Below are positions 8,858 to 39,605 of a stretch of DNA of 64,000 nucleotides, piece by piece. The DNA is from an uncultured Candidatus Saccharibacteria bacterium (GTDB lineage Bacteria > Patescibacteriota > UBA1384 > JAGGWG01 > CAZAJM01), in the NCBI GenBank assembly GCA_964485625.1, contig CAZAJM010000004.1, positions 3,349-67,348 on the forward strand. Direction: 5' to 3'. The number at the start of each line of letters is the position of its first letter. Within the stretch, counting starts at the first letter, position 1. The notes under the pieces were generated by a model, which did not search any database, was not told the origin of the DNA, and saw only the letters and a list, made by a program, of their open reading frames with translations. A program made the position numbers and the translations under genes.

Positions 8858-9031
8858 TCTTTTTCACGACATTTTGGTGCGGCTTTGGACTGTTTGGTCC
8901 GTTTGACATCAGCCCTGAGCCGCACCTTTTCTATAATCAAAAAGTTATCCATTTTTATCCACACTTTTGGCTAGTTGACATCTGTGTGGGTGTGCTATAC
9001 TAGTTAGTGCCAGTAGGGAAAGCTGGTTAGT

Positions 9032-24129: not shown

Positions 24130-26049
24130 ATGGCAAAAAAAGAAGCAAATTATGACGCAAGTGCGATAGAAGTACTAAAAGGCCTAGATCCAGTTAGAAA
24201 GAGACCGGGAATGTATATTGGAGGAACTGGTAAACAAGGGCTTCATCACTTAATCTGGGAGGTTATCGATAATTCCATAGATGAAGCTATGGCTGGTTAC
24301 TGTGATAAGATCGTCTTGATTTTAAATAACGATGGTAGTGTTAAAATTACTGATAATGGCAGAGGTATACCTGTGGAGAAGCATAAAGATAGCGGCAAGT
24401 CTGCTCTGGAAACTGTGCTGACTACACTTCATGCAGGTGGTAAGTTTGGCTCTAAAACCTATCAAGTTTCTGGTGGTTTACATGGTGTTGGTGTCTCGGT
24501 AGTTAATGCTCTTTCTAGCAAGCTAGAAGCCAAGGTTTATCGGGATGGTAAAGTCTATCAACAAGAATATTCTAGAGGTAAATCTAAAGGCAAGATGAAA
24601 AGCTCATCTAAAAAAGATAGTGATTTTTTTGGTGATAGTGGTACAGCGATCAGTTTCACTCCTGATGAGAAGATATTTGATGAAGTGGAGTTTGATTTTG
24701 AGACAATTCTTAATCGGCTTCGCCAACAGGCCTATCTAACCAAAGGAGTCAAGATGAAAATTATTGATCGCAGAGCTAAAGAGGAGAGCGAGTATAATTT
24801 CTATTTCCAAGGCGGGGTTAGGTCCTATGTACGATATTTAACTAAATCTAAGGAAAAGATATCTGAGCCAATATATATTGAAGGTGAGATGGATAAAATT
24901 GGTATTGAGATTTCACTAAGATATACTGACGATTTTAATGAGCAGGTAATCACTTTTGCTAATAATATCTATACTGAAAATGGTGGTACTCATCTTACCG
25001 GATTTAGGTCGGCCCTAACTAGGGTGATCAATGACTATATTAAGAAAAACGAGATGGGGGAGAAGGGTTTAAATAAAGTCTCCGGCCAAGATACTAGAGA
25101 GGGTTTAACAGCTGTGATCAATGTTAAGCTAGGTGAGGCCCAGTTTGAAGGTCAGACCAAAGGAAAGCTTGGTAATCCTGAAGTCCGTTCGGCGGTGGAG
25201 TCTCTAACAAATGATGTCCTTTCGACATACTTTGAAGAGAACCCCCAAGAGGCCAATAATATTAGTGAAAGATCCTTTTTGGCGGCTAGGGCTAGGACAG
25301 CAGCCAAGAAGGCAAGAGAGACAGTTATTAGAAAAGGTGCTCTAAGTGGTTTGGCTTTGCCGGGCAAATTAGCTGATTGTTCTTCAAGAAAGCCGGAGGA
25401 TTCTGAAATATTTATTGTCGAGGGTGATTCAGCCGGTGGTTCCAGTAAGCAGGGTAGGGATAGAGGCCATCAAGCGATATTACCTCTTAGGGGTAAGGTT
25501 TTGAATGTTGAGAGGAAACGACTTGATCGCATTCTGGAAAACAATGAATTAAAATCATTGATTTTAGCTCTAGGTATGGGTGTAGGAGAGGAGAAAGATA
25601 TCGAATCTCTAAGATATGATCGAGTGATAATTATGACCGATGCTGATATTGATGGTGCCCATATTGACACTTTGCTGTTAACGTTTTTCTATCGATACTT
25701 TAAAGAATTAATAACTGAAGGCCACCTCTACTTAGCTAAAGCCCCGCTTTACAAGGTAGAGAAAGGGAAAGAGTCAATCTATGCCTATAGTGAAGAAGAG
25801 CGGGAGAAGGCACTAGATAAATTAGGCGAAAATGCAAAGGTCCAGAGATACAAAGGTCTAGGTGAGATGAACCCAGGGCAACTATGGGAGACTACTATGG
25901 ATCCTGAGACTAGAATTCTTAGAAGAGTCAATGTTGAGGATGCTCAGCAGGCAGATCAAGTCTTTTCTACCCTCATGGGTTCTGAGGTTGAGCCAAGAAA
26001 GAGATTTATCCAAACCCATGCCAAGTCTGTAGAAAATCTAGATGTATAG
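24130..26049 (+). CDS. gyrB: DNA gyrase subunit B
   Basis: 639 aa. GHKL ATPase (LHHLIWEVIDNSIDEA, LHAGGKFG), Toprim (EGDSAGGS) and C-terminal tail. Confidence 0.95.
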   Translation: MAKKEANYDASAIEVLKGLDPVRKRPGMYIGGTGKQGLHHLIWEVIDNSIDEAMAGYCDKIVLILNNDGSVKITDNGRGIPVEKHKDSGKSALETVLTTLHAGGKFGSKTYQVSGGLHGVGVSVVNALSSKLEAKVYRDGKVYQQEYSRGKSKGKMKSSSKKDSDFFGDSGTAISFTPDEKIFDEVEFDFETILNRLRQQAYLTKGVKMKIIDRRAKEESEYNFYFQGGVRSYVRYLTKSKEKISEPIYIEGEMDKIGIEISLRYTDDFNEQVITFANNIYTENGGTHLTGFRSALTRVINDYIKKNEMGEKGLNKVSGQDTREGLTAVINVKLGEAQFEGQTKGKLGNPEVRSAVESLTNDVLSTYFEENPQEANNISERSFLAARARTAAKKARETVIRKGALSGLALPGKLADCSSRKPEDSEIFIVEGDSAGGSSKQGRDRGHQAILPLRGKVLNVERKRLDRILENNELKSLILALGMGVGEEKDIESLRYDRVIIMTDADIDGAHIDTLLLTFFYRYFKELITEGHLYLAKAPLYKVEKGKESIYAYSEEEREKALDKLGENAKVQRYKGLGEMNPGQLWETTMDPETRILRRVNVEDAQQADQVFSTLMGSEVEPRKRFIQTHAKSVENLDV

Positions 26050-26136
26050 ACAAAATGAAAGTAAATATATTATTAAAAAACGTATATAAAAGTAGCTTGT
26101 CCGCCATTGTCTGAGACTTCAGGCGATGACAGGCGG
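26049..26136. repeat. GC-rich hairpin element copy B (AT-rich ~50-bp arm plus 41-bp GC hairpin), flanked by 29-bp perfect direct repeats at 26020-26048 and 26137-26165
   Basis: Direct repeat gccaagtctgtagaaaatctagatgtata is the last 9 codons of gyrB. Hairpin: gtccgccattgtctgagacttcaggcgatgacaggcgggcc. Confidence 0.65.
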
Positions 26137-26187
26137 GCCAAGTCTGTAGAAAATCTAGATGTATAAGTAGATTAAAAATAATTAAAT

Positions 26188-29100
26188 ATGGCAAAAAAAT
26201 CAAATAAAGAAAAAGAGATCAAGAAGAAGGTAGATGAGATTGCAAATAAGCTTGAGGAAGTACAGATTGCTGAAGAGATGGAGACGAGCTATTTAGATTA
26301 CTCTATGAGCGTGATTGTCTCCCGTGCCTTGCCGGATGTAAGAGATGGTCTAAAACCTGTTCATAGAAGAATTCTCTATGCAATGAACCAGATTAAGCTA
26401 GGTCACTCAGGTAGATTTAGAAAGTCTGCTACTGTGGTAGGTGAGGTTCTTGGTAAGTATCATCCACATGGTGATACAGCTGTCTATGATAGTCTTGTTC
26501 GTATGGCTCAGGATTTTTCTATGAGATATATGTTGGTTAATGGTCATGGTAATTTTGGCTCAATTGATGGCGATGCAGCAGCGGCTATGAGATATTGCAT
26601 TACCGGAGATAGCCTTATAGCTACCGATTCCGGCTTGATACCAATATGTACTATTTCTGACAAGGAAGAAGAAGATATTAATATTGAAGTGCAATCAAGA
26701 AATATTAAGACAAACAAAGCAACTAAATTTTTTAATTCCGGTGAACACCCAGTGATAAGTGTTGAGACAGAATTGGGATATCAAATTAGTGGTTCTTATA
26801 ATCATCCTTTGCTGTGCTGGGTAAACAAGGGAGGAACTCCCAAACTTGAGTGGAGATTGTTGGAAAACTTAACCGAAGGTGATCATGTTGTTTTGAATAG
26901 AGAGTCAAATTTGTTTTCTAGCAACATTCCAAATTTAACCGAGTATTATTACAGCTCAAGTAAGACGGAGAAAATTGGTATGCCTAAAGAGATGAATTCA
27001 GATTTAGCATTTTTACTAGGAGCTTTAGTTGCAGAAGGGTCTTTCCATCAAGATAAGATTATTTTTAATAATTCTGATAAAGATTTCTATAAGAAAGTTA
27101 AACAAATTATTACTAGTCAATTTAAAGGTATTAAGTTGTATGAAAGAGATATCAAAGGGAACTGTTTAGAGTTAGAAATTTACCATCAAGAAGTTGTTAA
27201 TTTTCTTATTAACATTGGTTTAAATAATGTAAAATCCCATAAAAAAGAGATACCGTTTATTGTTCTTTCATCTCCCAAAGCAATAATTACTTCTTTTTTG
27301 AATGGTTTGTTTGAGGGTGATGGTTCAGTTTTAGCTAAAACTGACAAAAGGCACCAGGGCAAATCTATTGAATTAACTTATAATTCAAAAAGTAAAAAGC
27401 TAATTAAGCAATTAAAGATAATATTGCTCCATTTGGGGATATTAACTACCAATCCTTATCGAGATAAACGTAGTGATTGTTTTAAGTTAATTATTTCCGG
27501 TGTTGAATCGATTAAAAGATATAAAGAGGAAATAGGATTTTTTTCAGAAAAGAAGAAACAAAGACTTGCCGAAGTTGATAATATAAATTCAGAAAGGATG
27601 AGTAAGAATGATTATATTCCCTATTTAAATGAATATTTAAGAGGGAAGTATGATTTTGTGGAAGTAAAAAAGTACAATTTTGACAGATATAATAGATTAG
27701 AAAAAAATCTTTCCAAAATTATCGATAAAATTGATGATAGTGACAAAAGATTACTTGAATCAGTAATAAAAAAACACTACGTTTTTAACAAGATAGCTCA
27801 AATTAAAAAGGAGCAACCGGAAAATGTCTATTCTGTTAAGGTTGATAGTAAGTGCCATTCTTTTGTAGCTAATGGCTTTGTTAACCACAACACTGAGTGC
27901 AAGATGGAGAAGATCTCTTCATATATTCTCAAAGACATAACTATGGATACGGTCGATTTTGTTGATAACTACGATGGATCTATTCAAGAGCCTTCGGTTC
28001 TGCCAACTAGGGTTCCTAGCCTACTTCTAAATGGTTCGCTTGGTATAGCTGTTGGTATGGCGACCAATATCCCTCCCCATAATTTAAACGAACTTATCGA
28101 TGCCTCTATAGCTCTACTAAACGACGACGACTTAGGAGTTGAAGATTTAATGGAATATGTCAAGGGGCCTGATTTTCCTACGGGAGCTCAGATTTATGGT
28201 ATTGATGGTATTAAGCAAGCTTATTCAACGGGTAAGGGCAAGGTTGTTGTGAGGGCAAAAGCCAACATTGAAGAGGGCAAGAAGGGCAAGCACCAGATAG
28301 TAATTACGGAGATTCCATATCAGGTTAATAAGGCGGAGCTAATTAAAAAGATTGCCGATCTGGTTAAAGAAGATCGGGTTAAAGGAATCTCAGACCTCAG
28401 AGATGAGTCAGATAAAGATGGATTAAGAGTCGTGATTGAGCTTAAGAAAAATTCTTTCCCAAAGAAAGTTCTCAATAACCTATACAAGTTTACCCGTCTA
28501 CAGGACGCCTTTCATATTAACATGCTAGCCCTTATTGATGGCATCCAGCCCAGAGTACTAACACTAAAAGAGGCCTTAAAGCAATTTCTAGAGCATAGGC
28601 GAGTAGTTGTTACTAGAAGGTCAGAGTATGAATTAAAGAAAATTGAGGCTAGATTACATATTTTAGAGGGTCTCAAGATTGCCTTAGACAATATTGATAA
28701 GATTATCCAGACCATTAAAAAATCTAGTAACAGAAAAGACGCTAGTAAGAAGTTGGTTAAAAATTTTGATCTTAGTAAAAAACAGGCCGAGGCAATTTTG
28801 GATATGAGACTGTCCCAGCTCTCGGCTCTGGAAAGACAAGAGATAGAAGATGAGTATAAGGCAAAAAAAGAGCGGAAAGAGGAATTGGAAGCGCTTCTAG
28901 CTTCTGATAAGAAGATGAGAGAGAAAATCCAGGAAGAGTTGGAAGAGGTGAAAGAAGAGTTTGGCGATGAGCGAAGAACTAAGATCTACAAGACTGAAGT
29001 GGGTGAGATTGGCAAGGAAGAACTAATTGCTAAGAAGCCAGCTATAATCACTCTGACCAAAGACAACTATATTAAAAGAATGCCTATCAATACATATAAG

Positions 29101-30093
29101 TCTCAGGCAAGAGGCGGTAAAGGTGTGGTCGGTATGACTACTAAAGAAGAAGATGTTGTTGACAGGATGTTGGTGACCAATACTCATTCATCCCTGTTGT
29201 TCTTTACCGATCAAGGCAAGGTATATCAGTCTCCAGTTCATGAGATACCGGAGGCTAGCCGTAGAGCTAAAGGGAACGCTATTGTTAACTTGCTTCAAAT
29301 CAAGCCTAGCGAGAAAGTAACCGGGGTTTTGGATATTGGTGATATTGAGAAGTCCGATGCTAAGTATCTGCTTATGGCTACTCAGGGTGGCAGAGTAAAA
29401 AAGACCAAAATAGAAGACTATCAGGGTATTAGGCAATCCGGTTTAATTGCCATTCGGTTAAAAGATGAAGATAAGCTTAAGTGGGTTAAGCCAACTAGTG
29501 GCAAAGATAATGTTATTTTAGTTTCAGCCAAGGGTAAGTCGATTAGATTTAGTGAAGAAGATGTTCGTCCGATGGCTAGGAATACCCAGGGCGTAAAAGG
29601 AATTGACTTAAACAAAGATGACCAGTTAGTCGGCATGGATATTATTGCTTCCAAGCAGCAGAAGGCTGATAAGCAGATAAAAGACAAAAAGAAAGAGCTA
29701 GAGAAAGAGAAGGGCATGGACGAAGAAGATGCCAGAGCTCTAGCCGAAGAGACAGGCGAGGCCAAGAAAGGTCTTTCAGATGATCTGCTGGTAGTTATGA
29801 GTAAGGGTTACGGCAAGAGATCTAAGCTAAAGGACTATCCTTTGCAGAACAGAGGTGGCAAAGGAGTTAAATCGGCCAACGTTAAAGATAAAACAGGAGA
29901 TATAGTTCAGATGATGATAGTACCGCCTAGAGGCAAGGGCGATCTAGCCATGGTCTCGGCCAAAGGCAAAGTAATTAGAATACCATTAACTTCTGCGAAA
30001 AAAATGGGCCGCAATACTCAAGGAGTAAGACTGATGAAGTTAAACCAGGGAGATAAAGTAGCTTCAGTCACCTATATGGCTAAGGGCAAGTAA
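26188..30093 (+). CDS. gyrA: DNA gyrase subunit A interrupted by an intein (extein 869 aa plus intein 432 aa)
   Basis: 1301 aa. The extein sequence AAMRY / [29 protein letters not shown] ... [18 protein letters not shown] is colinear with GyrA around the catalytic Tyr. The insert between them has intein termini. Confidence 0.95.
26596..27891 (+). mobile_element. Intein in GyrA, inserted immediately after the catalytic tyrosine (gyrA-a site), with LAGLIDADG homing-endonuclease domain
   Basis: Starts with Cys ([13 protein letters not shown], block A) and ends VANGFVNHN followed by the +1 Thr. Two LAGLIDADG motifs are present, [14 protein letters not shown] and [15 protein letters not shown]. 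In-frame, 1296 nt. Confidence 0.9.
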
Positions 30094-30120
30094 AATACCA
30101 CTTTAAGGACTAATATAGAG

Positions 30121-30150
30121 AAGCCCTGTCAATTGACGGGGCTTTTTCTT
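30121..30150 (+). terminator. Rho-independent terminator after gyrA
   Basis: aaGCCCtGTCaattGACgGGGCtttttctt. Confidence 0.6.
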
Positions 30151-30219
30151 GCCAAAACAAGTTTTATGTGATATAGATAGACCAGACTTGTACCAAACGA
30201 TGCAGCAGGAGTGATCACC

Positions 30220-31062
30220 ATGGCAGCAATAAAACAATATTATAGTCGACGGACTCCATTGGGAGAGATGCTTAAAGAGGCTAGAGATGAGGCTGAGTTG
30301 ACTCAAATTGATGTTGCTGATAGATTGGCTGAGGATTATGGTAAGTCAATTGGAGTACAGGTGATTAGAGATTTGGAATATCTTGGGCCGAGAAATGAAG
30401 ATCATCTTCAGTTGATAAAGCTTATAGACCAAGTCTATGGTTCAAATGTTGCTGAAGAGATTGAGAAGTATGGTTTAGGTTACCGATTGCCATGTGGGGA
30501 TGATTTTGTAAATGCAATTGAATACTCGGGTCTAAGCGGCAACAAATTATCCCAAGAGATCGCTTCACAGCTTAACTATTCTGTATCATCTATGCCAACA
30601 TACATTCGAATCTGGAGGGTTGTCGGTCTGCCAAATATCCGCGTGGCTGAGGAGATCGATGATATTCTTGGTACGGATTTTGCAGATAATTTTGAGGAGA
30701 GCGAGAGAAAGTCTGCAAGGATATTAGAAAGAGCAAGGGCTAAGAGAAAGTCGGATGATTCAGGTTCTAAAACAAGCCAAGATCCTGAAGTGGTTGAAGT
30801 GAATACTGATGAGGAGCGAGTTGAGTTCGACGCAGATGAGCTTTTTGCCGATATGGAATTTGATTTAGAGATGTTAGTCAGATCTTGGAGGGTTGAAGGT
30901 TTCGAGCCTCATATTGAACTAGTGGCGGAAGAGATTGGGGTTTTGGTTAATATGAAGGATGAGTTGTTGGATAAGCTGATTGAGGTGATTGGTATGAGAG
31001 AAGAGATGATTGGCTTAAGAGATGAGATTAGGGCAAAACTTGAAGAGAGAATAAGCAATTAA
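30220..31062 (+). CDS. Hypothetical protein with two XRE-like HTH segments and an acidic C-terminal tail
   Basis: ATG at 30220 sits 9 nt after AGGAG; the GTG at 30211 proposed by the ORF track is less likely. LGEMLKEARDEAELTQIDVADRL is HTH-like. Confidence 0.5.
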   Translation: MAAIKQYYSRRTPLGEMLKEARDEAELTQIDVADRLAEDYGKSIGVQVIRDLEYLGPRNEDHLQLIKLIDQVYGSNVAEEIEKYGLGYRLPCGDDFVNAIEYSGLSGNKLSQEIASQLNYSVSSMPTYIRIWRVVGLPNIRVAEEIDDILGTDFADNFEESERKSARILERARAKRKSDDSGSKTSQDPEVVEVNTDEERVEFDADELFADMEFDLEMLVRSWRVEGFEPHIELVAEEIGVLVNMKDELLDKLIEVIGMREEMIGLRDEIRAKLEERISN

Positions 31063-31241
31063 AGCGACAGTTAATATATATCTTAATAGCAACACGCATT
31101 GTTATTGACTCATATTTTCTGTCGTTTTTTCTTTTTGATTAACTTTTGACTTTTAACCAGAAATAAGGTAGAGTTTAAATTACAAAACAATTTTTTTGAT
31201 TAATGTTTTTTAAATATGGCTATAAAGCTAACTGATCTGGC

Positions 31242-31332
31242 CCTGCCCGCCATTGGCTGAGCCGCAGGCGATGGCAGGCGAGTTAATCATAATTATCCAC
31301 TATAACCAATAAAAGCATTTAAGCAATATAAA
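31242..31332. repeat. GC-rich hairpin element copy C (41-bp GC hairpin plus AT-rich ~50-bp arm, inverted relative to copy B), flanked by 26-bp direct repeats at 31216-31241 and 31333-31358
   Basis: Direct repeat atggctat[a/t]aagctaactgatctggc is the first 9 codons of infB, 25/26 identical. Hairpin: cctgcccgccattggctgagccgcaggcgatggcaggcgag. Confidence 0.65.
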
Positions 31333-33303
31333 ATGGCTATTAAGCTAACTGATCTGGCAGATAAGCTAAAATTAACTAAACTTCAACTTAAGCGAGAGCT
31401 TAAGAATCTTGATATTGAAGGTCTTGATCCAAAGAAGACCTTTTTTGAACGTCAGATTGCAGATCAGATAATTGAAGAGCTTAGAGAGGATAAGGGAGAA
31501 AAAGAAGAAGTAAAGAAAGCTCCAGAAAAACCCAAAGTTAGGGAAGATGAAAAATCCATTGAAATAGGTGAGACAATTACAGTTAAGAATTTTGCCTCTA
31601 AACTTAATTTGCCGGTGACTGATGTGATTAAGGAATTAATGCGTAATGGTGTAGCAGCAACAATTAATGAGAAGATTGATTTTGATACAGCAAGTATTAT
31701 TGCTTCAGACTTTGGTTACTCTGCTGCTCAAGAGCAAGAGGCCAAAGGTATTTTAGAAGAAGACTGGCAGGGCAAGAAACTAGAAGAGAGGCCTCCTGTT
31801 GTTACTATCTTAGGTCATGTCGATCATGGCAAGACCACCTTATTAGATAGAATCAGAGAGAAGAATGTCGCAGGTGGCGAGTCCGGTGGTATTACTCAGC
31901 ATATTGGTGCTTACCAGGCAGAGGTTAAAGTAGAGGGAGATAAACGCAAAATTACCTTCATCGATACTCCCGGCCATAAGGCCTTTACGGCTATGAGGGC
32001 TCAGGGAGCCAAGGTAACCGATATTGCTGTTCTTATTATTGCTGCCGATGATTCGGTTCAGCCTCAAACCAAAGAGGCAATAGATCATATTAAGCAAGCC
32101 GGTGTGCCGATAGTGGTAGCGATTAACAAGATTGATTTGCCCGGTGCTGATGTCAATAAAGTTAAGCAAGATTTAATTGAACTTGGTTTGAATCCAGAAG
32201 ATCTTGGCGGTACTACCCCAACTGTCGAAGTTTCAGCCGAGAAAGGGACTAATATTGATAGTCTTTTGGAGATGATTATTCTAACTGCTGACTTACAAGA
32301 CCTAAAGGCCCCTCTTGATATCCAGCCTAAGGGAGTAGTGATTGAGAGCCATAAGCACAAAGGGGCCGGGGTATTAGCTACTGTCTTGATTAAGCAGGGA
32401 ATTTTAGAGCAAGGTAAGCCAGTCTTGGCAGGAACCATTGTTGGTACCGCTAGAATTCTAGAAGATGAGAATATGGATCGTATCGATAAAGCATACCCCA
32501 GTCAGCCAGTAAGAGTGGTTGGTTTCGATGAGGTGCCGGGAGTTGGCACGATTGTAGAGCAGCTTGGTGATATTAAAGAGGCTCGAAAAGTTGCTCAAAA
32601 AAGGATTGAGGAGGCAAGAAAAGAGGGCAAAACTACAGGTACAGGTTTGGCAGAAGCATCAAAGTCTATTAAGAAAGGTGAGAGTAAGCAGTTGAAGATA
32701 ATCCTTAAGGCCGATGTGGCCGGTTCTCTAGAAGCCCTAAGACAGTCAATTAATGCCCTAGGAGATAAAGAGACGAGTGTGGAAATTATTAGAGCCGGGG
32801 TGGGTCCGGTAAATGAGTCTGACATTGAAATGGCAACTGCTTCAGACGCGGTAATAATTTCATTTAGAATGCCAGTTGATAAAGCCGCAGGTAGTTTGGC
32901 TAAGCAGAACAATATTGAGATTAGTGAGTATGATGTTATCTACAAACTTATCGATGACCTACAAGCCGCTCTAGAAGGTATGCTCGAGCCAACTATTACC
33001 AAAGAGAAGCAGGGTGAGGCAAAAGTATTAAAGGTCTTCTTCTCCAGCAAGAATAGGACGATTGTTGGTGGCAGAATGCTCGAGGGTGAGGCAAATAAGG
33101 CTTTGGATGTTGAGATCCAACGAGGTGAAGATATTATCGCTAAAGGCAAGATTAATACTTTGCAGAGAGAACAGAAAGAAGTAGATAGTGTTAAAAAAGG
33201 TCAGGAGTTTGGTATTGGTTTAGAAACTGACGGCAAGATTAAGCCAGATGATAGATTGCTCTTTTATAGTTTGAAAAAAGAAGTAAGGAAGCTTCCCAAG
33301 TAG
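31333..33303 (+). CDS. infB: Translation initiation factor IF-2 (short form)
   Basis: 656 aa. G domain GHVDHGKTTLLD, DTPGH, NKID, followed by beta-barrel domains. Confidence 0.95.
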   Translation: MAIKLTDLADKLKLTKLQLKRELKNLDIEGLDPKKTFFERQIADQIIEELREDKGEKEEVKKAPEKPKVREDEKSIEIGETITVKNFASKLNLPVTDVIKELMRNGVAATINEKIDFDTASIIASDFGYSAAQEQEAKGILEEDWQGKKLEERPPVVTILGHVDHGKTTLLDRIREKNVAGGESGGITQHIGAYQAEVKVEGDKRKITFIDTPGHKAFTAMRAQGAKVTDIAVLIIAADDSVQPQTKEAIDHIKQAGVPIVVAINKIDLPGADVNKVKQDLIELGLNPEDLGGTTPTVEVSAEKGTNIDSLLEMIILTADLQDLKAPLDIQPKGVVIESHKHKGAGVLATVLIKQGILEQGKPVLAGTIVGTARILEDENMDRIDKAYPSQPVRVVGFDEVPGVGTIVEQLGDIKEARKVAQKRIEEARKEGKTTGTGLAEASKSIKKGESKQLKIILKADVAGSLEALRQSINALGDKETSVEIIRAGVGPVNESDIEMATASDAVIISFRMPVDKAAGSLAKQNNIEISEYDVIYKLIDDLQAALEGMLEPTITKEKQGEAKVLKVFFSSKNRTIVGGRMLEGEANKALDVEIQRGEDIIAKGKINTLQREQKEVDSVKKGQEFGIGLETDGKIKPDDRLLFYSLKKEVRKLPK

Positions 33304-33341
33304 CTTGAATAATATTTAAGTATAGTTTAGTTTAGAAAGTA

Positions 33342-33836
33342 ATGAATAGATTACTTTCTTTTTTATTCAACCAAAGAAACCAGACCACCTTCTTAACTGA
33401 GCTTGTTAGAGCAGCCAGAGTTTTGTCTAAGAAGAATATCTCTGGCATATTAGTTGTTGATATGGCATCAGTTAAAAACGATCAGCCATCTTTGATTAAT
33501 TCAATCGAGCTAGTTAGCAATTTTGTTAGGAAAAAAAGAGAGTCTTTGGTTATCGAAGGCCAGCAGATAGTTGATAGTAATATCACGCCTCCTTTCCCAG
33601 AAAATATCTACTACCATAGCCTAACTGATCGTCAATTGGCTTGTTTGGGTATTAGCCAAACTAGAGAAGATTTTGCTATTTTGGTTGAAAAGGATGGCAA
33701 AATTAGCTTAGCTTATCAAAGCTCAATTAAGACCGATCTTAATTCTGCTCAATTAGAGAGTATTATTAGGACTATTACTAACTCTAGTTATGAGCAGAAG
33801 AAAGTTCTGGCTGTTAGTAGTAGCAGCCAAATATGA
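33342..33836 (+). CDS. Hypothetical protein
   Basis: 164 aa, no recognisable motif. It sits where rbfA would be expected but does not resemble RbfA. Confidence 0.35.
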   Translation: MNRLLSFLFNQRNQTTFLTELVRAARVLSKKNISGILVVDMASVKNDQPSLINSIELVSNFVRKKRESLVIEGQQIVDSNITPPFPENIYYHSLTDRQLACLGISQTREDFAILVEKDGKISLAYQSSIKTDLNSAQLESIIRTITNSSYEQKKVLAVSSSSQI

Positions 33837-33871
33837 TATAATAGCAGTAAGTAGTAAACTGTTAATATATC

Positions 33872-34951
33872 ATGGCTGATTTTTCAGATAATTTAGAAGA
33901 CTTAGGCCTGACACCGGAAGAGAAATCTCTTGAGCCACAGAAAGAAGCAAGCAAGTTAGATTCTCTTAGCAGGGATAATGCTTTAGAGTCCCTTAAGAAA
34001 AGGATCTTGGGATCAAAGAAGAAAAACGAGAGGCTCTCTACTGCTTGGGAGCTGGGAAAAACCGGAGAGAGAAGGGCAGCCAAGATTTTACTTGAGGCAG
34101 CTAAAAGCGAGTCCGATTTAGATGTTAAGGATGAGATAATCTCTGCTTTGGGTTGGCTGGGAGACCAAATCGCCGGAGATTTTTTAGTAGAAATACTAAT
34201 TAAAGATAAAGAGCCACACTTAAGAAGGAAAGCTGCCTGGGCTATCTCTCATATTGGAGAGACCAAGACGGTTGTAGATAGTCTGGTAAAAGTGTTAACA
34301 AGTGATCAGGATCAGAAGGTGAGGGAAGAGGCGGCTTGGGCTCTAGGAGAGATGAATTGTCAGGAAGGAATGAGTATACTGGCCGATGTTGTTCTGACTG
34401 ACGAGTCGGCTAAAGTTAGGAAGATGGCTGTCTGGGCGATTGGACAGATAAAGGGAGAGAAAACTTTAGAGTTGCTTTTAGAAGCTCTTGAGGCTGATAT
34501 GAGTGAGGAAGTAAGACGGGAATCTGCTTGGGTAATAGGCCGAGAGAAAATTGAGGAAGCTAGAGATAGATTAGCAAAGATGCTTAGAAGAGAGGAGCAC
34601 CCGGAGACTCTGAAACTTATCATTTGGTCTTTGGCGCAAATTGGTACTAAAGAAGAAGTAAATTATTTCGACCATATTTTCGAAGAGAATTATCCAGAGT
34701 CAGTTAAAGAAGAGGCTGCTTGGAGCTTGGCTCAGATTGGAGAAGGCAAAGGCTCCCGAATTATTGAAAAACATTTAGAAGACCAAGGTAGTAGCGAAGT
34801 AGTTAGAGTAATGGTCTGGGCCCTGGGTCAAATAGGGGATAGTAAGTCAATTAAAAAAATTGAACAATTAAAAAGAACCACTAAGGATGAAGAGGTGGTT
34901 GATGAGATAATTTGGGTAGTTAATCAGATTAAAGAGAGAGAAGATAAGTAG
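33872..34951 (+). CDS. HEAT-repeat (PBS-lyase-type) protein
   Basis: 359 aa with at least 8 tandem ~31-aa repeats of the form VR.xAAWALGxIG. Confidence 0.7.
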   Translation: MADFSDNLEDLGLTPEEKSLEPQKEASKLDSLSRDNALESLKKRILGSKKKNERLSTAWELGKTGERRAAKILLEAAKSESDLDVKDEIISALGWLGDQIAGDFLVEILIKDKEPHLRRKAAWAISHIGETKTVVDSLVKVLTSDQDQKVREEAAWALGEMNCQEGMSILADVVLTDESAKVRKMAVWAIGQIKGEKTLELLLEALEADMSEEVRRESAWVIGREKIEEARDRLAKMLRREEHPETLKLIIWSLAQIGTKEEVNYFDHIFEENYPESVKEEAAWSLAQIGEGKGSRIIEKHLEDQGSSEVVRVMVWALGQIGDSKSIKKIEQLKRTTKDEEVVDEIIWVVNQIKEREDK

Positions 34952-34973
34952 TTTGGTGAATGTTTAGGATATA

Positions 34974-35003
34974 AAAAAGCCATCAATAGATGGTCTTTTT
35001 TTA
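34974..35003. terminator. Bidirectional Rho-independent terminator between the HEAT-repeat gene and the 16S 3' end
   Basis: aaaaaaGCCATCaataGATGGtCttttttt: the stem is flanked by an A-run and a T-run. Confidence 0.6.
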
Positions 35004-35241
35004 ATCTCTTAAGATCTAAGATTCGGACAAGAATGTTCCTCGGCTTCACAAATGTGAAGACGGGATCAACCTTGCGCCACCGATAAGTATATCGGCGACA
35101 TTCCTATTAGAAAGGAGGTATTCCATCCGCAGATTCCCCTACGGAAACCTTGTTACGACTTTGTCCCAGTCACTGGCTTCACCTTTATTCCACACAAGGT
35201 GGAATGTCCAGTGCCTCCAGCTTCTTTGACATGACGGGCGG

Positions 35242-36054
35242 ATTCTGATAGTTGAAGCAAACTTCAGGTTCCCACTAAGCATGCAGATTTCCCGCACTTA
35301 GCGAGTCCTTAATGCATTTTGTTTTTTAGATTAATAATTTTATCTAGTCCTTTCTCCGTGTAATGCTCCTTGTTTTCAATTAATTCCATAATTCTGGAAA
35401 ATAATTCAAAATCATTTCTTTTGGAGTTACTTCTTAAAGGATTTTCTCTAAAAAACTTGATGATTTTTTTGACGTCTTCAAGTCTTGAGGCTTGATATCG
35501 GTAGCACGTAGAATGATTTTTTCTACGATCTCTTTGAATGTATACAATGCCAAACCCTAAATATTCTTTTATCTGATAGAGCACCTGTTTGTCAAATGCT
35601 TTTAGCTTGATAACAAACATAGGCACAACTCTATTTCTGGTGCCATCGTCTTTTTTCTTTTTTACATAGACGTGAAAACACCCTTCTCCATCAGTTAAAC
35701 CGACTAAATAATCATCAGTAAGCATTAGGTTTTGTCCTTCCCTCGGCAAGTTTTGCCGGGTACTATGACTCAGCTGACTTCTTATGTTATTCATTTGCTT
35801 CTAGTATAACATAAGATCTCCCTGGATTAAATAAATTACTATTCCACACATCCCACGAATTTCTATAATATATTTTTACTTCCCTAACACACACCGGTTA
35901 GGTCGTAAAAAATGGTTTTAATGAAGTAATGATGGGCTATGTTTTGCCGTTGAGTCCTACAGTCAGTATCTCACGATAATTGACCTACTCTTGGCTATAT
36001 AAAAGGATTTTAACCTTTTAGCAAAATATCCTGCCAGGCGTCTTTATTAATTTT
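35242..36054 (-). mobile_element. 16S intervening sequence 1 at the decoding-centre helix (E. coli ~1398/1399), encoding a LAGLIDADG endonuclease
   Basis: Exon sequence ...gacgggcgg stops at 35241 and resumes tgtgtacaag at 36055. Boundaries are +/- a few nt. No terminal G is evident, so the intron class is undetermined. Confidence 0.7.
35309..35794 (-). CDS. LAGLIDADG homing endonuclease (single-motif type) inside 16S insertion 1
   Basis: 161 aa with LVGLTDGEGCFHVYV. Confidence 0.8.
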   Translation of the reverse strand: MNNIRSQLSHSTRQNLPREGQNLMLTDDYLVGLTDGEGCFHVYVKKKKDDGTRNRVVPMFVIKLKAFDKQVLYQIKEYLGFGIVYIQRDRRKNHSTCYRYQASRLEDVKKIIKFFRENPLRSNSKRNDFELFSRIMELIENKEHYTEKGLDKIINLKNKMH

Positions 36055-36381
36055 TGTGTACAAGACTCGAGAACATATTCACCGTAATGTGGCTGACTTA
36101 CGGTTACTAGCGATTCCATCTTCATGGAGTCGAATTTCAGACTCCAATCCGTACTGGGGTACATTTTAAGGGATTAGCTCCGTCTCGCGACTTGGCGAAA
36201 CCCATTGTATGTACCATTGTAGCGCGTGTGTCGCCCAAGACATAAGGGTCATGCTGATTTGGCGTCATCTCCACCTTCCTCCGTGTTGACCACGGCAGTC
36301 CTCTATGACAGATTTAACATAGAGCAGAGGTTGCGCTCGTTCAGGGACTTAACCCGACGTTTCACAACACGAGCTGACGAC

Positions 36382-37243
36382 CATGTTATTCCATTATTGC
36401 TAATGGCATGGACTATACCATCTTCCTTCATGAGGAAGTCAATGATTAATAGCAGTTACAGCCTGCTATTAGGACTACTAGACCTTTAGTAATAGTCACA
36501 AGTCTCTAAGGGCAATTTTATCTGATATTTTAATTGAGTATTTTTTCATTTCACTTATAGCTTTTTTTGCTGTATCTATTGTGAAATATAGACAATACGT
36601 TCCAGCAGATTTGTAATAATAGACTCTTGTATCAAGATTTAGCTTTTTTAACAAACCCTGATCAGTTTTAGTCTCTTGCTCATTTCCATAAACAATCCTC
36701 ATGTCATTTACCAGATTGTTACTTATTGAGCCGTCACCATCAAATCTTCCGCTGACATAAGAATATATGTCAGTCTTATTGTCTAGATTACGTATCAGTT
36801 TCTTAGATTTTTTGAAATTATATAACAGTTTTCTGTCATTTACATAAATTTGATAAGCAACCAATTTTCCGTTTTTATTTGGATAAATTTTATAGTTACG
36901 TATTTTTTCAGCTAACAGATTGTCAATATTTCTGTTTAAAGGCCGATATATTCTTAATTTTATTCTTTCGTTAGAATAATTAGCCTTTTTGAAAAAATTA
37001 TAAAACTTCCAAATGAGTTTAACGTTACAGTTGGTTAAGCCTACACTACTGGTTCTGTGGTATCCATCTGCACACCAAAGCCCAATAATATATTTATGTT
37101 TCAGTAAATCATAATTGCCCACGGAATTACCTTATTAATACTATTACTATTGTAACATGAATCGTATTAATTTGCTATAAGGTTTCTCCGTTTTGAATTG
37201 ATTTTTCCACTAGAAATTACTTTCTAGGGGGTCATTATTAAAT
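36382..37243 (-). mobile_element. 16S intervening sequence 2 (E. coli ~1052-1056 region), encoding a LAGLIDADG endonuclease
   Basis: Exon ...gagctgacgac stops at ~36381 and resumes aaccatgcaacacctgt at ~37244. The catg on both sides makes the junction ambiguous by 4 nt. Confidence 0.65.
36496..37122 (-). CDS. LAGLIDADG homing endonuclease (double-motif) inside 16S insertion 2
   Basis: 208 aa with IIGLWCADGYH and SGRFDGDGSI. Confidence 0.8.
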   Translation of the reverse strand: MGNYDLLKHKYIIGLWCADGYHRTSSVGLTNCNVKLIWKFYNFFKKANYSNERIKLRIYRPLNRNIDNLLAEKIRNYKIYPNKNGKLVAYQIYVNDRKLLYNFKKSKKLIRNLDNKTDIYSYVSGRFDGDGSISNNLVNDMRIVYGNEQETKTDQGLLKKLNLDTRVYYYKSAGTYCLYFTIDTAKKAISEMKKYSIKISDKIALRDL

Positions 37244-37520
37244 AACCATGCAACACCTGTCATCTGGCTCCCAAAGGGCACCTCCGATTTTCATCAGAGT
37301 TCCAGAGATGTCAAGTCTTGGTAAGGTTCTTCGCTTATTATCGAATTAAACCACACGCTCCACCGCTTGTGCGAGTCCCCGTCAATTCCTTTGAGTTTCA
37401 ATCTTGCGATCGTACTTCCCAGGCGGATCACTTAACGCGTTAGCTTCGAGACCAAACGGGGTCGATGCCGCCTAATCTCTAGTGATCATCGTTTACAGCT
37501 TTGACTACAGGGGTCTAAAT

Positions 37521-38535
37521 ATTTGCTCACATTGCTGTGAGGATTGGACTATATCATTTTCTAAAAATTTTCCATTTATTTTTTCTACTGCTAACAATTT
37601 TTTCAATTGTTGAATGAGAAAAATTTGTTAAATGGCTTATTCTAGAAATCCAGTTTTGTTGGCGTTTATGATCTTGATAAAGCAGTAAAATTTTATACAA
37701 CATACTTATTTGTTGTATGTTCGGCGCAATTATTGTAAAAAACCTTTTAAGGGCTTTTTCTGAATACAGGTTTAACCTGATTCTTTTATTTACAATTCCA
37801 ATTTTAGTTTCAATATTCCATTTTACTTGTAAATACTCTTTCAATAACTGAACTTCATTTTTTGAAAAACTATCTGTGCAAAAAACTCCTTTTCTAGCGT
37901 TGCCTATTATTGAACCGTCGTCTAGCCACCATACAGCTAAAGATAATTTGTCTAGATTATCTAGCCATTCTTTACTTATGGTTTTTACGTTGTTTGGATT
38001 CGTTATTTTCCAAATCTTAGTTAATTCAGGCAAAGCTCTACTTTGAAATCTTAGTTTTTTGTATCCGTAACTGCTATTGTCATTGCTTTCATCTTGTTCC
38101 CATACTGCATTGTTTGATGAAATAACCGACAATTTGGCAGCTTTCCAAAAAAAGTATTCTTGTTGTTTCTTTGAATGTCTATATGAGAATCTGGCATTTT
38201 TATACCCATTATGTATTTTTAAACTGCCATCTCCTAATAAAGATCCAAATATTATTGCTTTAGCTTGATCTGAATTAAATAATTTATCCATACTTGTTAG
38301 TATTATATCATAACAAACTATTTAATTCTCAGACACCATAGTCTCTACAGGGCCCGATATCATTTGCATAATATCAGACTCCCTCGGAATTGCCTTAAAA
38401 CACATGCTGTAGTAATCATGTTTTAAATTAAGGTTTCTCCGATAAAACTGAATGCACACTTTAGCATTGCTGCTAAAGGGGACACCTTTTGTTACTATTT
38501 ATTGAATAACGTCTATGAGACGTCAACGCGGTAAC
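37521..38535 (-). mobile_element. 16S intervening sequence 3 near the 790 loop (E. coli ~790-800), encoding a LAGLIDADG endonuclease
   Basis: Exon ...gactacaggggtctaaat stops at ~37520 and resumes gggatttatctaatccctttcgctacc at ~38536. Both flanks carry GGGTATCTAAT-like sequence, so the boundaries are +/- 15 nt. Confidence 0.6.
37554..38291 (-). CDS. LAGLIDADG homing endonuclease (double-motif) inside 16S insertion 3
   Basis: 245 aa with IIFGSLLGDGSL and WWLDDGSI. Confidence 0.8.
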   Translation of the reverse strand: MDKLFNSDQAKAIIFGSLLGDGSLKIHNGYKNARFSYRHSKKQQEYFFWKAAKLSVISSNNAVWEQDESNDNSSYGYKKLRFQSRALPELTKIWKITNPNNVKTISKEWLDNLDKLSLAVWWLDDGSIIGNARKGVFCTDSFSKNEVQLLKEYLQVKWNIETKIGIVNKRIRLNLYSEKALKRFFTIIAPNIQQISMLYKILLLYQDHKRQQNWISRISHLTNFSHSTIEKIVSSRKNKWKIFRK

Positions 38536-38955
38536 GGGATTTATCTAATCCCTTTCGCTACCAAAGCTTTCGTGCCTCAGCGTCAGAACAGACCTAGCAA
38601 ATTGCCTTCGCTTTCGGTGTTCCCTGTGATATCAACGGATTTCACCCCTACACCACAGGTTCCATTTGCCTCTGTCTGCCTCAATTTTGATAGTTTCCTT
38701 GGCGCTTTTCCTGTTAGGCAGGAAAATTTAACCAAAGACTTATCAAAACGCCTACGCACCCTTCACGCCCAATGATTCCGGATAACGCTCGCCCTCTATG
38801 TATTACCGCGACTGCTGGCACATAGTTAGTCAGGGCTGATAGCATGGTAAGTTCAAGATTTATTCCCATGCATTAGAACTTTACAATCCGAAGACCGTCT
38901 TCGTTCATGCGGTGTCGCTGCATCACCCGTTAGGGCATTGTGCAAGATTCCCCAT

Positions 38956-39001
<46 letters not shown>

Positions 39002-39605
39002 GGGGTCACGCTCTCACGTCCCCTAGCCGTCATAGCCTTGGTAAGCTTTTACCTTACCAACAAGCTGATAGCGAGCAGGTTCCTCTCAAAGCGCCGGAGC
39101 ATTTACTGCTAAGAAAATTAATTCATAGCAGACTATCAGGAATTGTTCCCAGTTTCCCGGGGTTATTCCTGTCTTTGAGGTAGATACCTACCTGTTACTC
39201 ACCCGTCCGCCGAGCAACCGAAGTTGCTCTCGACTTGCATATGTTAGGCACACCGCCAGCGTTAATCCTGAGCCGGGATCAAACTCTCCATAAAAATTGT
39301 CTTCTTTTTATCTTTATTTTTAACTCGTCTTAAAAAAGAAAGGGAAGACGAGTATTCTTGTCCGAGTCTCAGATCTTAACACTATTTGTTAAAGTACTAT
39401 TTAAAAAGCCTCTAACGAGAGGCGGTTAAAGCTACCAATATTTGTAATATTTTCTACAAATGCCTCCCAATACTTATTACTTTCTAAATTATAGTCTTAG
39501 TCTAAACAATCTAATTGCTGTTGTCAAGGGTATTGATATGAGTAGTTAATAGAACAAAAAAAGCTCGAATATGTAACAATTTATATTATATGTTAATATT
39601 ACGAG

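Follow-up and report, generated by a model that had tools for sequence, protein, structure and literature searches.

A 29-nt gene-end duplication around an 88-bp hairpin-bearing insert at gyrB and infB in a Candidatus Saccharibacteria genome

We analysed a 64-kb stretch of DNA, hereafter called the window, in which the gyrB gene is followed by gyrA and the junction between them is occupied by a small insert bracketed by a direct repeat. GyrB has orthologues in L020-L031 with identities of 92-75%. The intein of GyrA appears as a gap at amino acids 137-568 in the comparison with L020. The features of this locus are the following.

24130 to 26049, forward strand: gyrB ORF (Pfam HATPase_c, DNA_gyraseB, Toprim and GyrB_C), the last 30 nt of which are the target
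26020 to 26048, forward strand: gyrB repeat copy T0, the working terminus (AKSVENLDV and the TA of the stop codon), 29/29 identical to T1
26049 to 26097, forward strand: AT-rich arm of the insert, about 47-50 nt, delimited from the sequence
26098 to 26136, forward strand: GC-rich imperfect hairpin of the insert, a member of a pan-CPR family by its folds, family identity and covariation
26137 to 26165, forward strand: gyrB repeat copy T1, an orphan terminus identical to T0
26188 to 30093, forward strand: gyrA, the 3' neighbour, with a LAGLIDADG intein (Pfam DNA_topoisoIV, Intein_splicing and LAGLIDADG_3)

The repeat, GCCAAGTCTGTAGAAAATCTAGATGTATA, comprises the last nine codons of gyrB and the first two letters of its stop codon. 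Its two copies are perfect over 29 nt, start 117 nt apart and enclose 88 bp (26049-26136), which confirms the description given in an earlier note on this DNA. The first base of the insert, a G at 26049, completes the stop codon TAG of gyrB; the duplication keeps the gene intact, as the earlier note had held. The orphan copy is followed by an A, which makes a TAA, and then by the 21-nt native gyrA leader. A direct reading of the sequence shows a frame open from the hairpin into this copy (ACPPLSETSGDDRR-AKSVENLDV, then a stop). The insert consists of an AT-rich arm and a 41-nt GC-rich hairpin. For the latter, the folding energy is -22.6 kcal/mol (z = -3.3) in the RNA and -8.9 kcal/mol (z = -2.8) in the DNA, and its stem can be extended to 26095-26138. 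The repeat is not a product of chance, because the whole 64-kb window contains only four local direct-repeat families of at least 16 nt. A duplication of the 3' end of a tRNA-Ala gene, classical in appearance, is also present in the window.

A second module of like geometry, missed by the earlier note, lies at the start of infB, with 29-nt repeats, an 88-bp insert and a spacing of 117.

31146 to 31174, forward strand: native promoter-like site TTGACT-17-TAGAGT, upstream of the orphan repeat and kept in relatives
31213 to 31241, forward strand: infB orphan repeat copy, with an ATG at 31216, identical at 27/29 positions to 31330-31358
31242 to 31282, forward strand: hairpin of the infB module, in the same strand sense as the gyrB copy, assigned by family identity
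31283 to 31329, forward strand: AT-rich arm of the infB module, adjoining the working gene start, 80% identical to the arm of L028
31330 to 31358, forward strand: working repeat copy of infB (ORF 31333-33303, with IF-2 domains)

The duplicated block consists of the first 26-29 nt of infB, and the repeat starts at most 3 nt from the start codon. The orphan copy is continuous with the native upstream DNA, whose promoter-like block is also found 5' of infB in L020, L028, L036, L037 and L038, and it opens a 14-codon upstream ORF that continues into the hairpin (MAIKLTDLALPAIG, then a stop). The recurrence of the gyrB hairpin at 31242-31282, which had been noted before, is real (81% identity, same strand orientation). 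This copy is 100% identical over 39 nt to those of L008 and L016 and 97.5% identical to six other CPR loci. Two independent Logan assemblies, made from two sequencing runs, contain the whole infB module at 100% identity. The exact GyrB with its neighbouring protein was not retrieved from the contig index, and independent confirmation hence comes from the infB module only.

The earlier note had also placed a member of the hairpin family at 8096-8183, and this is only in part the same kind of object.

8093 to 8180, forward strand: composite nested hairpin of the gyrB-hairpin family, 3' of an M23 peptidase gene, recognised by its folds and its match to L029

The membership in the family holds, since a block of 20 nt (8159-8178) is exactly that of the hairpins in the gyrB units of L029. 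The structure is nevertheless a composite, with one diverged hairpin within the loop of another, and has no comparable flanking or terminal duplication.

The comparison with relatives shows that the 88 bp are an insertion, as the earlier note had proposed. The gyrB site is empty, with neither hairpin nor duplication, in L020-26, L027, L028, L030 and L031, the last of which has 11 nt between the gyrB stop and the gyrA start. The infB site is empty in L020, L031, L036, L037 and L038. A duplicated gyrB end without the hairpin, which the earlier note would have read as simple tandem duplication, is present in no relative examined. Nor is the motif confined to three places with no other duplications, since more of them were found in the window and in relatives. 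Related modules were found in other samples, in assemblies by JGI and Logan. L029 has three tandem units exactly at the gyrB position of the window (periods of 116, 116 and 115), and the junction is at the same nucleotide (GCC, nine codons from the stop) in both, despite unlike arms and a flipped hairpin. L028 has an infB module with a period of 118, in which the arm is 80% and the flank 77% identical to those of the window. The repeats flanking the gyrB copies (window, L029) and the infB copies (window, L028) are 29-30 nt long, and in every one of these modules the orphan copy lies on the hairpin side.

The hairpin is a multi-copy family with a widespread motif, as had been suggested. The 41-nt element is 95-100% identical in distant Patescibacteria; over these 41 nt, the gyrB hairpin of the window is 95% identical to copies in Paceibacterota (L004, L015) and 92% to one in Saccharibacteria (L013). 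Three of its base pairs covary across 14 variants, and one Paceibacterota genome has at least seven copies. In other CPR genomes the hairpin is found in frame within the genes for DHODH, DinB, RecO and RsmA (twice) and within two unknown ORFs, and five of its six reading frames are open. All 14 hairpin copies of other CPR genomes are bare, lacking both the long flanking duplication and the arm, whereas both simple hairpins of the window have the duplication. To judge from these sequences, the difference points to a machinery that may be specific to this lineage. In Rfam, neither the window nor any of 13 hairpin loci had a match above the gathering threshold, and at E <= 10 there were only chance-level ones. 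The modules lack a T-run and have no internal promoter match above chance; we therefore rejected a role of the hairpin or arm as terminator or promoter. A metagenome scan for the hairpin-arm junction (TGCCCGCCA N20-30 GGCAGGCGAGTTA) returned one bare hairpin (L032) and failed to recover L029, which shows that the collection does not contain these samples. Scans of viral contigs gave a single chance match in GC-rich coding DNA, and there is thus no sign of a phage vector. A protein search with the translations of the five open frames produced no candidates and was uninformative. A search of the available literature found neither the motif in a CPR context nor a description of such elements, and the element appears to be undescribed so far.

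The copies of the repeats have diverged in the relatives in a peculiar way: all of the differences, at least 12 in the gyrB repeats of L029 and the infB repeats of L028, are synonymous. They number at least seven in L029 (P <= 4e-4) and five out of five in L028 (P <= 2e-3), and are A>G, G>A, C>T and T>C changes. Units 1 and 2 of L029 have a single difference in 86 nt but six in the 30 positions of their repeats; units 2 and 3 have arms that are 93% identical, with repeats again differing at 6/30 positions, all synonymous. These data contradict a plain target-site duplication, the reading of the earlier note, followed by neutral decay. We rejected the idea that the orphan copy is a frozen, neutral fossil of the duplicated target because neutral decay should also strike non-synonymous positions, and because divergence in L029 is much lower in the arms (1 in 86, or 7%) than in the repeats (20%). 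The plain form of that explanation also disagrees with the lack of homology between the arms of different copies and with the bare hairpins elsewhere in CPR.

The arms are 45-50 nt long in every module. That of gyrB is unrelated to those of infB and of the L029 units, and arms showed no significant similarity across loci in either orientation (P > 0.1 in all cross-locus tests). Compared with their own flanks they were also not significantly similar, with one exception: the gyrB arm resembles, collinearly from its first base, the tail of a 70-amino-acid ORF (ORF70) and the gyrA leader of relatives. The match scores 37-38 against an empirical null of 21 +/- 4.6 and was exceeded in 1 of 241 windows. 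The arms of L029 weakly resemble this same spacer (P about 0.02-0.03), and the infB arm has no similarity to native infB leaders. An import of gyrA from another lineage has no support, as the GyrA exteins and GyrB rank the relatives alike.

The scenario that we prefer, tentatively, is that of a hairpin-tagged insert, measured by length and mobilised in trans, which would have been joined to nicks about 29 bp apart and later reshaped by recombination between strains. The 88 bp would be a small non-autonomous module, whose only conserved part is the 41-nt GC-rich palindromic element that may circulate among Patescibacteria. It would have landed within gyrB, 29-30 nt from where the reading frame ends, leaving the 29 nt of the landing site on both sides, so that the left copy keeps the gene at full length and the right one stands as an orphan against the hairpin. 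A like event would have affected the first 26-29 nt of infB. In this process, a trans-acting enzyme encoded elsewhere would recognise the hairpin and mobilise it with about 47 nt of whichever DNA adjoins one side, a cargo set by length and not by sequence. Gap filling after joining to the staggered nicks would produce the direct repeat, and only those insertions would survive in which the duplication restores the coding end of an essential gene. Homologous exchange with other strains could then replace both the working and the orphan copy by functional alleles and so account for the synonymous-only differences, and unequal crossing-over between repeats could produce arrays or precise deletions of the module.

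Several observations argue for this measured insertion. Within one genome, two unrelated targets have repeats of 29 and 29 nt, inserts of 88 and 88 bp and periods of 117 and 117; their arms are unlike in sequence yet constant in length; and there are clean empty sites at both gyrB and infB. Such constant geometry with variable cargo, if it holds, points to an enzyme with measuring properties. Other observations speak against it. The ORFs scanned in the 64-kb window include no cognate transposase or other transposase, integrase, Cas1 or reverse transcriptase, and the insert lacks terminal inverted repeats. Arms that are not conserved are unlike any transposable element family known to us, and we know of no enzymatic precedent for the combination of a staggered cut of 29 bp and a cargo measured at 88 bp. 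The synonymous-only changes oblige the model to make an extra assumption, that of recombination with functional alleles, and the near-identity of units 1 and 2 in L029 sits poorly with the divergence of their repeats. The independent events are only two or three. The likeness of the gyrB arm to native DNA fits equally well the pick-up of local cargo and a joint formed by recombination.

The latter is the basis of a possible though rather doubtful alternative, in which the hairpin is not the end of a transposon but a recombination joint between alleles. DNA from a diverged strain would have been anchored by homology at one end and joined illegitimately at the hairpin at the other, or two alleles whose hairpins lie at different positions would have undergone unequal exchange between these. 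The resulting DNA would have the gene terminus and the adjacent spacer twice, one per allele, and the copies would look alike only in the coding 26-30 nt because the non-coding DNA has diverged. This accounts for the synonymous-only differences with no extra assumptions and explains why the recognisable repeat ends at a stop or start codon. It also agrees with the resemblance of the gyrB arm, and weakly of those of L029, to the ORF70-gyrA region, with the bare hairpins elsewhere, and with the role of GC clusters as recombination hot spots in AT-rich yeast mitochondrial DNA. The open frame from hairpin to orphan (ACPPL..RR-AKSVENLDV, then a stop), which is the frame used within RsmA, is what one would expect of a relic gyrB allele with an in-frame hairpin. 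At infB, however, the orphan reads the hairpin in its one stop-containing frame, so an infB allele with only the hairpin would be dead, and the arm is unlike any infB leader. Recombination between alleles gives no reason for equal periods (115-118) and repeat lengths at two unrelated loci. The parental alleles that it requires were not seen among seven relatives, GyrA exteins and GyrB are related alike to the relatives and so give no sign of imported DNA, and such a scar is present at 0/14 hairpins of other genomes but at both simple hairpins here.

Unlikely, though still in contention, is att-type integration, which the earlier note had raised as duplication of an att core. In it, a tiny circular cassette of about 117 nt (arm, hairpin and copy of the gene terminus) would enter the matching terminus by site-specific or short-homology recombination, with the hairpin as the recombinase site and tandem integration giving arrays. 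Integrative elements at the 3' ends of tRNA genes do bring a replacement end. As in these, the identity block here spans from the crossover point to the gene end, reaching the gyrB stop and beginning 0-3 nt from the infB start codon; the repeat copies look like functional alleles, L029 has a tandem array, and the working infB copy of L028 is closer to the window copies (1-2 differences) than to its own orphan (5 differences). The duplicated tRNA-Ala end in the window can be counted in the same sense. Yet no integrase was found in the window, and a double-stranded circle of 117 bp is mechanically unlikely. The near-identical units of L029 carry repeats that differ at 6/30 positions, and this discordance, seen also between units 2 and 3, shows that repeat and arm were not inherited together. 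At gyrB, the repeat boundaries of the window and L029 are identical although the arms are unrelated; at infB, the divergence between the modules of the window and L028 is about that of the flanking gene, as for vertical descent. Far less probable is a local duplication with filler DNA, by slippage or template switching of replication stalled at a pre-existing hairpin. Replication does stall at hairpins, and direct repeats do flank this one, but a tandem duplication would have repeated the arm too, the arms are unlike the adjacent flanks, the constant geometry at two loci would be left unexplained, and relatives without the duplication are also without the hairpin. We give hardly any credence to an artefact in which strain variants were assembled into a chimera at a palindrome that is hard to sequence. 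Hairpin copies do lie at contig ends in one MAG (L008, L016), and the repeat copies resemble different alleles. Against this, the infB module is identical in the two Logan assemblies, related modules come from assemblies of other samples, and junctions like those from repeat to arm within the L029 array need real reads.

Known systems resemble the modules in parts. Rickettsia palindromic elements (RPEs) are palindromic repeats of 100-150 nt, restricted to one genus and found in frame inside housekeeping genes. The hairpin alone is similar, a short multi-copy palindrome scattered in small, AT-rich genomes and in frame in unrelated housekeeping genes, but it has only 41 nt and is near-identical across classes of Patescibacteria. 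To our knowledge, RPEs have not been reported with 29-nt duplications of gene ends. Yeast mitochondrial GC clusters, 'byp' elements and bacterial REP/BIME are also GC-rich palindromes that spread in AT-rich genomes, sometimes in coding sequence, and act as recombination hot spots; their duplications are of 0-3 nt. They belong to other host systems, and no cognate RAYT-like gene was seen here. In Mycoplasma, IS1630 (IS30 family) makes target duplications of 19-26 bp and IS1634 of tens to hundreds of bp. These share with our modules direct repeats far above the usual 2-13 bp and a setting in reduced, AT-rich genomes. They are, however, autonomous, with a transposase, inverted ends and variable duplications, whereas here there is no gene, the ends are not inverted, the repeat is constant at 29 nt and half of the 86-89-bp cargo is not conserved. 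In the comparison with MITEs, the ends of the insert (GACAAAATG... and ...CAGGCGG) are not inverted repeats, the internal palindrome lies at one end only, and family members have only the 41-nt hairpin in common and lack similarity over the whole element. Flanking repeats of 29-30 nt are found at the gyrB and infB modules and are absent from the 8093 composite and the 14 hairpins elsewhere.

Casposons, to which the earlier note had likened the repeat, make duplications of 14-15 bp at their targets, which are 3' ends of genes for tRNA and EF-2. In CRISPR spacer integration, Cas1 duplicates a whole repeat of 23-47 bp, and the cargo is set by length, not sequence. Both share with the modules the integration at a staggered site that results in a long duplication. 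The casposon analogy nevertheless fails, since the duplication is 29 nt long, there are no terminal inverted repeats and the window has no Cas1. The modules differ from CRISPR in that their cargo of 88 bp greatly exceeds any spacer in length and that the end of a gene is duplicated instead of a dedicated repeat. A CRISPR array was also rejected for L029, where the would-be spacers (repeat and arm) are 91% alike and the repeats are gene ends, with no cas genes in the window. Elements integrated at the 3' ends of tRNA, tmRNA and protein genes, and CIMEs, which are integrase-less remnants flanked by att sites, have in common with the modules tandem accretion and an identity block from crossover to gene end that rebuilds the gene; here there are only 88 bp, no integrase was found, and the same geometry is seen at two targets. 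Integron cassettes are also small promoter-less units in arrays with imperfect hairpins that have unpaired bases, and in integrons the attC hairpin is the recombination site. The units described here differ in carrying a copy of the target gene end. Inspection of the sequence shows that the RYYYAAC and GTTRRRY cores are absent from the hairpin consensus, and the window has no IntI or attI. A diversity-generating retroelement was rejected because the differences are not adenine-specific and the window has no reverse transcriptase.

If they hold, two points would be new. A structured GC-rich element of 41 nt persists nearly unchanged in distant classes of Patescibacteria that otherwise have no DNA but rRNA in common. 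This would be a CPR family of mobile repeats comparable to the RPEs of Rickettsia, tolerated inside essential proteins, and the hairpin would mark gene flow among episymbionts that are regarded as isolated. The other point is an insertion of DNA at the very ends of essential genes (gyrB, infB) in which the damage is repaired by the duplication of 29 nt of the coding end. A more daring version, to which we assign little likelihood, is that this CPR lineage has an integrase with two rulers, as in CRISPR adaptation. It would capture the hairpin tag with a fixed length (about 88 bp) and insert them at nicks one repeat length (29 bp) apart, where AT-rich intergenic DNA meets the end of a coding sequence, with arrays growing from the gene-proximal side. 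Such an enzyme would be related or analogous to spacer acquisition, but free-standing and active on ordinary genes. In practical terms, gene callers and the strain-resolved assembly of CPR genomes will be confused by the upstream ORFs, orphan gene ends and tandem arrays to which the modules give rise.

The duplication that the earlier note reported at the 3' end of gyrB is real and larger than stated there: it concerns a pair of window loci, arrays in one relative, and a CPR-wide hairpin family. The note had described a perfect 29-nt repeat of the gyrB terminus around 88 bp, and we found both copies without a mismatch, enclosing an AT-rich arm and a GC-rich hairpin:

24130-26049, gyrB ORF (Pfam HATPase_c, DNA_gyraseB, Toprim, GyrB_C)
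26020-26048, first copy of the gyrB repeat, GCCAAGTCTGTAGAAAATCTAGATGTATA
26049-26097, AT-rich arm
26098-26136, GC-rich imperfect hairpin (stem extendable to 26095-26138)
26137-26165, second copy of the gyrB repeat, GCCAAGTCTGTAGAAAATCTAGATGTATA
26188-30093, gyrA ORF with LAGLIDADG intein

The repeat is in frame and encodes the final nine residues of GyrB (AKSVENLDV) and the 'TA' of the stop codon; the base that follows makes this TAG (the working stop) at the first copy and TAA at the second. A chance origin is excluded because the entire window (39% G+C) contains just four families of local direct repeats of at least 16 nt. The folding energy of the hairpin is -22.6 kcal/mol for RNA (z = -3.3) and -8.9 kcal/mol for DNA (z = -2.8). 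We call the hairpin and arm between two copies of a gene end a module; the working copy belongs to the functional gene, and the orphan copy is the extra one against the hairpin.

Another of the four repeat families marks a second module, overlooked in the earlier note, at the start of infB (IF-2 domains). The note had listed its hairpin, along with a third site:

31213-31241, orphan copy of the infB repeat, AATATGGCTATAAAGCTAACTGATCTGGC
31242-31282, hairpin of the infB module
31330-31358, working copy of the infB repeat, AAAATGGCTATTAAGCTAACTGATCTGGC
8093-8180, composite in which one diverged hairpin lies inside the loop of another

The two infB copies are identical at 27 of 29 positions and lie 117 nt apart, as at gyrB. 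The AT-rich arm (47-50 nt) is 3' of the hairpin, and the order (orphan copy, hairpin, arm, working gene start) mirrors that of gyrB: in both modules, the orphan copy abuts the hairpin and the working copy abuts the arm. Because the DNA upstream of the orphan copy is the native infB leader of relatives, including a conserved promoter-like TTGACT-17-TAGAGT, the insertion consists of the hairpin, the arm, and one repeat. Window 27549-37369 and 30926-33441 are matched at 100% by two independent Logan assemblies (two sequencing runs). The infB module is no assembly artefact, and for the feature as a whole such an origin is a weak, highly improbable explanation. The claimed recurrence of the hairpin holds in full at infB, which has its own repeat and arm, but only in part at the third site (8096-8183 in the note), a nested composite with no comparable flanking duplication.

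Directly to the right of this composite, a GC-rich stretch (window 8390-8860) includes several islands of 66%+ GC; its overlapping ORFs, on both strands, match no Pfam or PHROG family, and it may be foreign DNA. Each module also gives a short ORF, terminated in both cases by the same loop TGA of the hairpin: MAIKLTDLALPAIG* (31216-31260) uses the start codon of the orphan infB copy, on the native transcript, and MKVNILLKNVYKSSLSAIV* (26055-26114) begins within the gyrB arm. These may act as upstream ORFs on IF-2 and GyrA expression, or else be a coincidence. In the window, gyrA and infB are separated by a 283-aa ORF with an HTH-like N-terminus (30211-31062; no family in Pfam or PHROG), 150 nt upstream of the infB module. 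This ORF is confined to the lineage of the window, gyrA and infB being adjacent in the relatives L020, L028, L031, and L036.

Searches with GyrB and IF-2 and contig look-ups retrieved syntenic loci (L numbers below) from hosts with 92-75% GyrB identity, with both empty and filled sites:

gyrB end, empty: L020-26, L027, L028, L030, L031
gyrB end, filled: window (1 unit), L029 (3 units)
infB start, empty: L020, L031, L036, L037, L038
infB start, filled: window, L028
ORF70 between gyrB and gyrA: L020 7929-8141, L028 2760-2972, L029 2669-2881, L030 4592-4798

The gyrB stop and gyrA start are 11 nt apart in L031; the other empty gyrB ends have a 70-aa cysteine-rich ORF ('ORF70') between the genes. 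L028 (GyrB identity 89%) carries the infB module (period 118), and L029 (also 89%) has three tandem units immediately 3' of gyrB. The repeats of L029 start at 2272, 2388, 2504, and 2619 (periods 116, 116, and 115), and Tandem Repeats Finder gives 3.3 copies at 91% identity. The earlier note had taken a duplicated gyrB end lacking the hairpin as the mark of simple tandem duplication; in every relative examined, a duplicated end comes with a hairpin, and plain slippage is a weak, very improbable explanation.

ORF70 is conserved (68-70 aa) and zinc-ribbon-like, with two Cys-x2-Cys pairs and no family; it occurs in most relatives and is missing from the window and L031. The gyrA intein (about aa 137-568) is shared by L028 and L029 but not by L020 and L031. 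It occurs in both genomes that have a gyrB module, and also in L028, which lacks that module.

The earlier note had read the repeat as a target-site duplication. Our results support this reading in part: the empty sites point to an insertion, and a constant geometry fits an enzymatic one. Inserts measure 88, 88, 89, 87, 87, and 86 bp; arms keep to 45-50 nt despite their differing sequences; and the repeat spans 29 to 30 nt at gyrB and is recognisable over at least 26 nt at infB, where 29 nt would also be possible. At gyrB, two lineages whose arms differ share one breakpoint, the hairpin-repeat junction falling at the identical nucleotide in the window and L029 (GCC, nine codons before the gyrB stop). 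The hairpin-proximal target ends of gyrB (GCCAAGTCTGT) and infB (other strand, GCCAGATCAGT) share 8 of 11 bases, a likeness that is suggestive only.

Other observations speak against a simple target duplication. No transposase, integrase, Cas1, or reverse transcriptase was found among the ORFs of the window. The gyrB arm of the window, the L029 arms, and the infB arm have no significant similarity in either orientation, the only alignable arms being those of the orthologous infB modules in the window and L028 (80%). Relative to the arm, the hairpin of the window's gyrB module is flipped with respect to the infB modules and L029. The start of this gyrB arm matches the last codons and stop of ORF70 well and then resembles the gyrA leader of relatives (score 37-38; 241 real AT-rich windows gave an empirical null of 21 +/- 4.6, with one higher value). 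The L029 arms show a weak likeness to the same spacer, and the infB arm resembles none of the infB leaders compared. Finally, all differences between repeat copies are synonymous. The four gyrB copies of L029 all encode AKSVENLDV* despite at least 7 substitutions, six at third positions and one at a synonymous Leu first position (P <= 4e-4), and the five differences between the L028 infB copies are all synonymous (P <= 2e-3). In the window, the single infB coding difference (ATA/ATT) and the gyrB stop difference (TAG/TAA) are silent. Units 1 and 2 of L029 differ at 1 nt in 86 and their repeats at 6 in 30, which implies different histories for repeats and units and rules out that the target survives as a neutral 'fossil'.

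When one genome per species was scanned, the motif turned up together with its outer stem at 14 sites. These belong to Paceibacterota (one MAG alone has seven copies), Zambryskibacteria, Saccharibacteria, and a MAG that bears the label Actinomycetota. Five further matches, in GC-rich genomes, lack the outer stem and were rejected as chance coding matches. The two hairpins of the window are 95-100% identical to copies in those genomes over 39-42 nt, and nothing else aligns with the window except rRNA. A structure of three stems is backed by the 14 variants, in which three pairs show compensatory changes. The consensus is open in five of its six reading frames, and the hairpin lies within ORFs at 6 of the 14 loci (hosts: dihydroorotate dehydrogenase, DinB-type polymerase, RecO, RsmA twice, and two unknown proteins), both RsmA cases translating it as ACPPLTEPTGDGRR. 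It matches no Rfam family, and with no description found in the literature searched, the family appears to be undescribed so far. In these genomes the hairpin is bare, with neither arm nor long flanking repeat; in the same test, flanking repeats reached significance at one AT-rich locus, L019. Duplication accompanies 2 of 2 simple hairpins in the window and 0 of 14 elsewhere, which argues for lineage-specific activity rather than sporadic accidents.

In one Paceibacterota genome, the hairpin is embedded in two paralogous conserved non-coding regions of roughly 300 nt (L004 4330-4680, L015 3130-3480), where an inverted pair (TTCCGCC...GGCGGAA) encloses it on its flanks. The regions have no Rfam match and may represent either a structured RNA or some larger repeat carrying the hairpin. 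Two contigs of the MAG labelled 'Actinomycetota' (about 40% GC) start at a hairpin copy 100% identical to the infB hairpin of the window (L008 1-46, L016 1-100). The hairpin probably breaks assemblies, and the label looks doubtful.

The reading we rank highest, albeit tentatively, is a non-autonomous module mobilised in trans. The hairpin would be its recognition tag, the cargo would be the hairpin plus about 47 nt, set by measure and not by sequence, and integration would use nicks spaced by about 29 bp. Survival would be limited to insertions that, through their duplication, restore an essential coding end. Later homologous exchange with other strains may have replaced the repeat copies by functional alleles; the gene body could serve as its anchor at the working copy, and the native flank at the orphan copy. 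Arrays, or a precise loss of the module, would result from unequal crossing-over, which would likewise account for the patchy distribution. Ranked second, and possible though doubtful, is a role of the hairpin as the joint at which diverged alleles recombined. This readily explains the synonymous-only differences, the likeness of the gyrB arm to the ORF70 tail and gyrA leader, and the bare hairpins elsewhere. However, it leaves the constant geometry unaccounted for, needs parental alleles that were observed in none of the seven relatives, and gained no support from a test for imported gyrA DNA. It also requires an infB intermediate that would be lethal because the orphan copy reads into the sole frame of the hairpin that contains a stop. 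Att-type integration of a tiny cassette bearing the gene end, which we rank third and find unlikely, fits the arrays and the identity block reaching the gene end, but no integrase was found among the ORFs of the window and the near-identical L029 units 1 and 2 (1 in 86) have repeats 6 in 30 apart.

Among known systems, the hairpin alone behaves like mitochondrial GC clusters and like Rickettsia palindromic elements, showing the feature tested for that kind, several copies that sit in frame within unrelated genes. The module resembles MITEs or IS with very long target duplications (IS1630, IS1634), but has neither terminal inverted repeats nor whole-length similarity. It shares a long stagger and a length-defined cargo with casposon or CRISPR-type integration, but not the hallmark of casposons, Cas1 and a 14-15-bp duplication. 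As in tRNA-type att duplications, a gene end is rebuilt, but the co-inherited integrase of att-type integrative elements is missing, as are the attC cores of integrons and the unrelated spacers of CRISPR arrays. Because at least one defining feature of each fails, we assign the module to none of these systems; in its workings, it would come closest to an insertion whose stagger has the size of the repeat.

The window also has a duplicated tRNA-Ala end (50047-50274, also 49940-50017), the last 20 nt (TCGAATCCCGCCGACTCCAC) being repeated 154 nt downstream. In the 134-bp insert, a T-run and AT-rich DNA are accompanied by a GC hairpin (GGGCCTTGGGCCC), which adjoins the orphan copy. CCA follows the orphan copy and not the gene copy, and tRNA-like fragments lie immediately upstream of the gene. 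The logic is that of gyrB and infB (a duplicated terminus, with a hairpin beside the orphan copy), but with other sizes and another hairpin. Homing elements are dense in the window. The 16S and 23S rRNA genes (35129-39306 and 53377-58000) are split by large insertions, typical of CPR genomes, with LAGLIDADG endonuclease ORFs:

35309-35794, minus strand
37554-38291, minus strand
55336-55752, plus strand
57115-57588, plus strand
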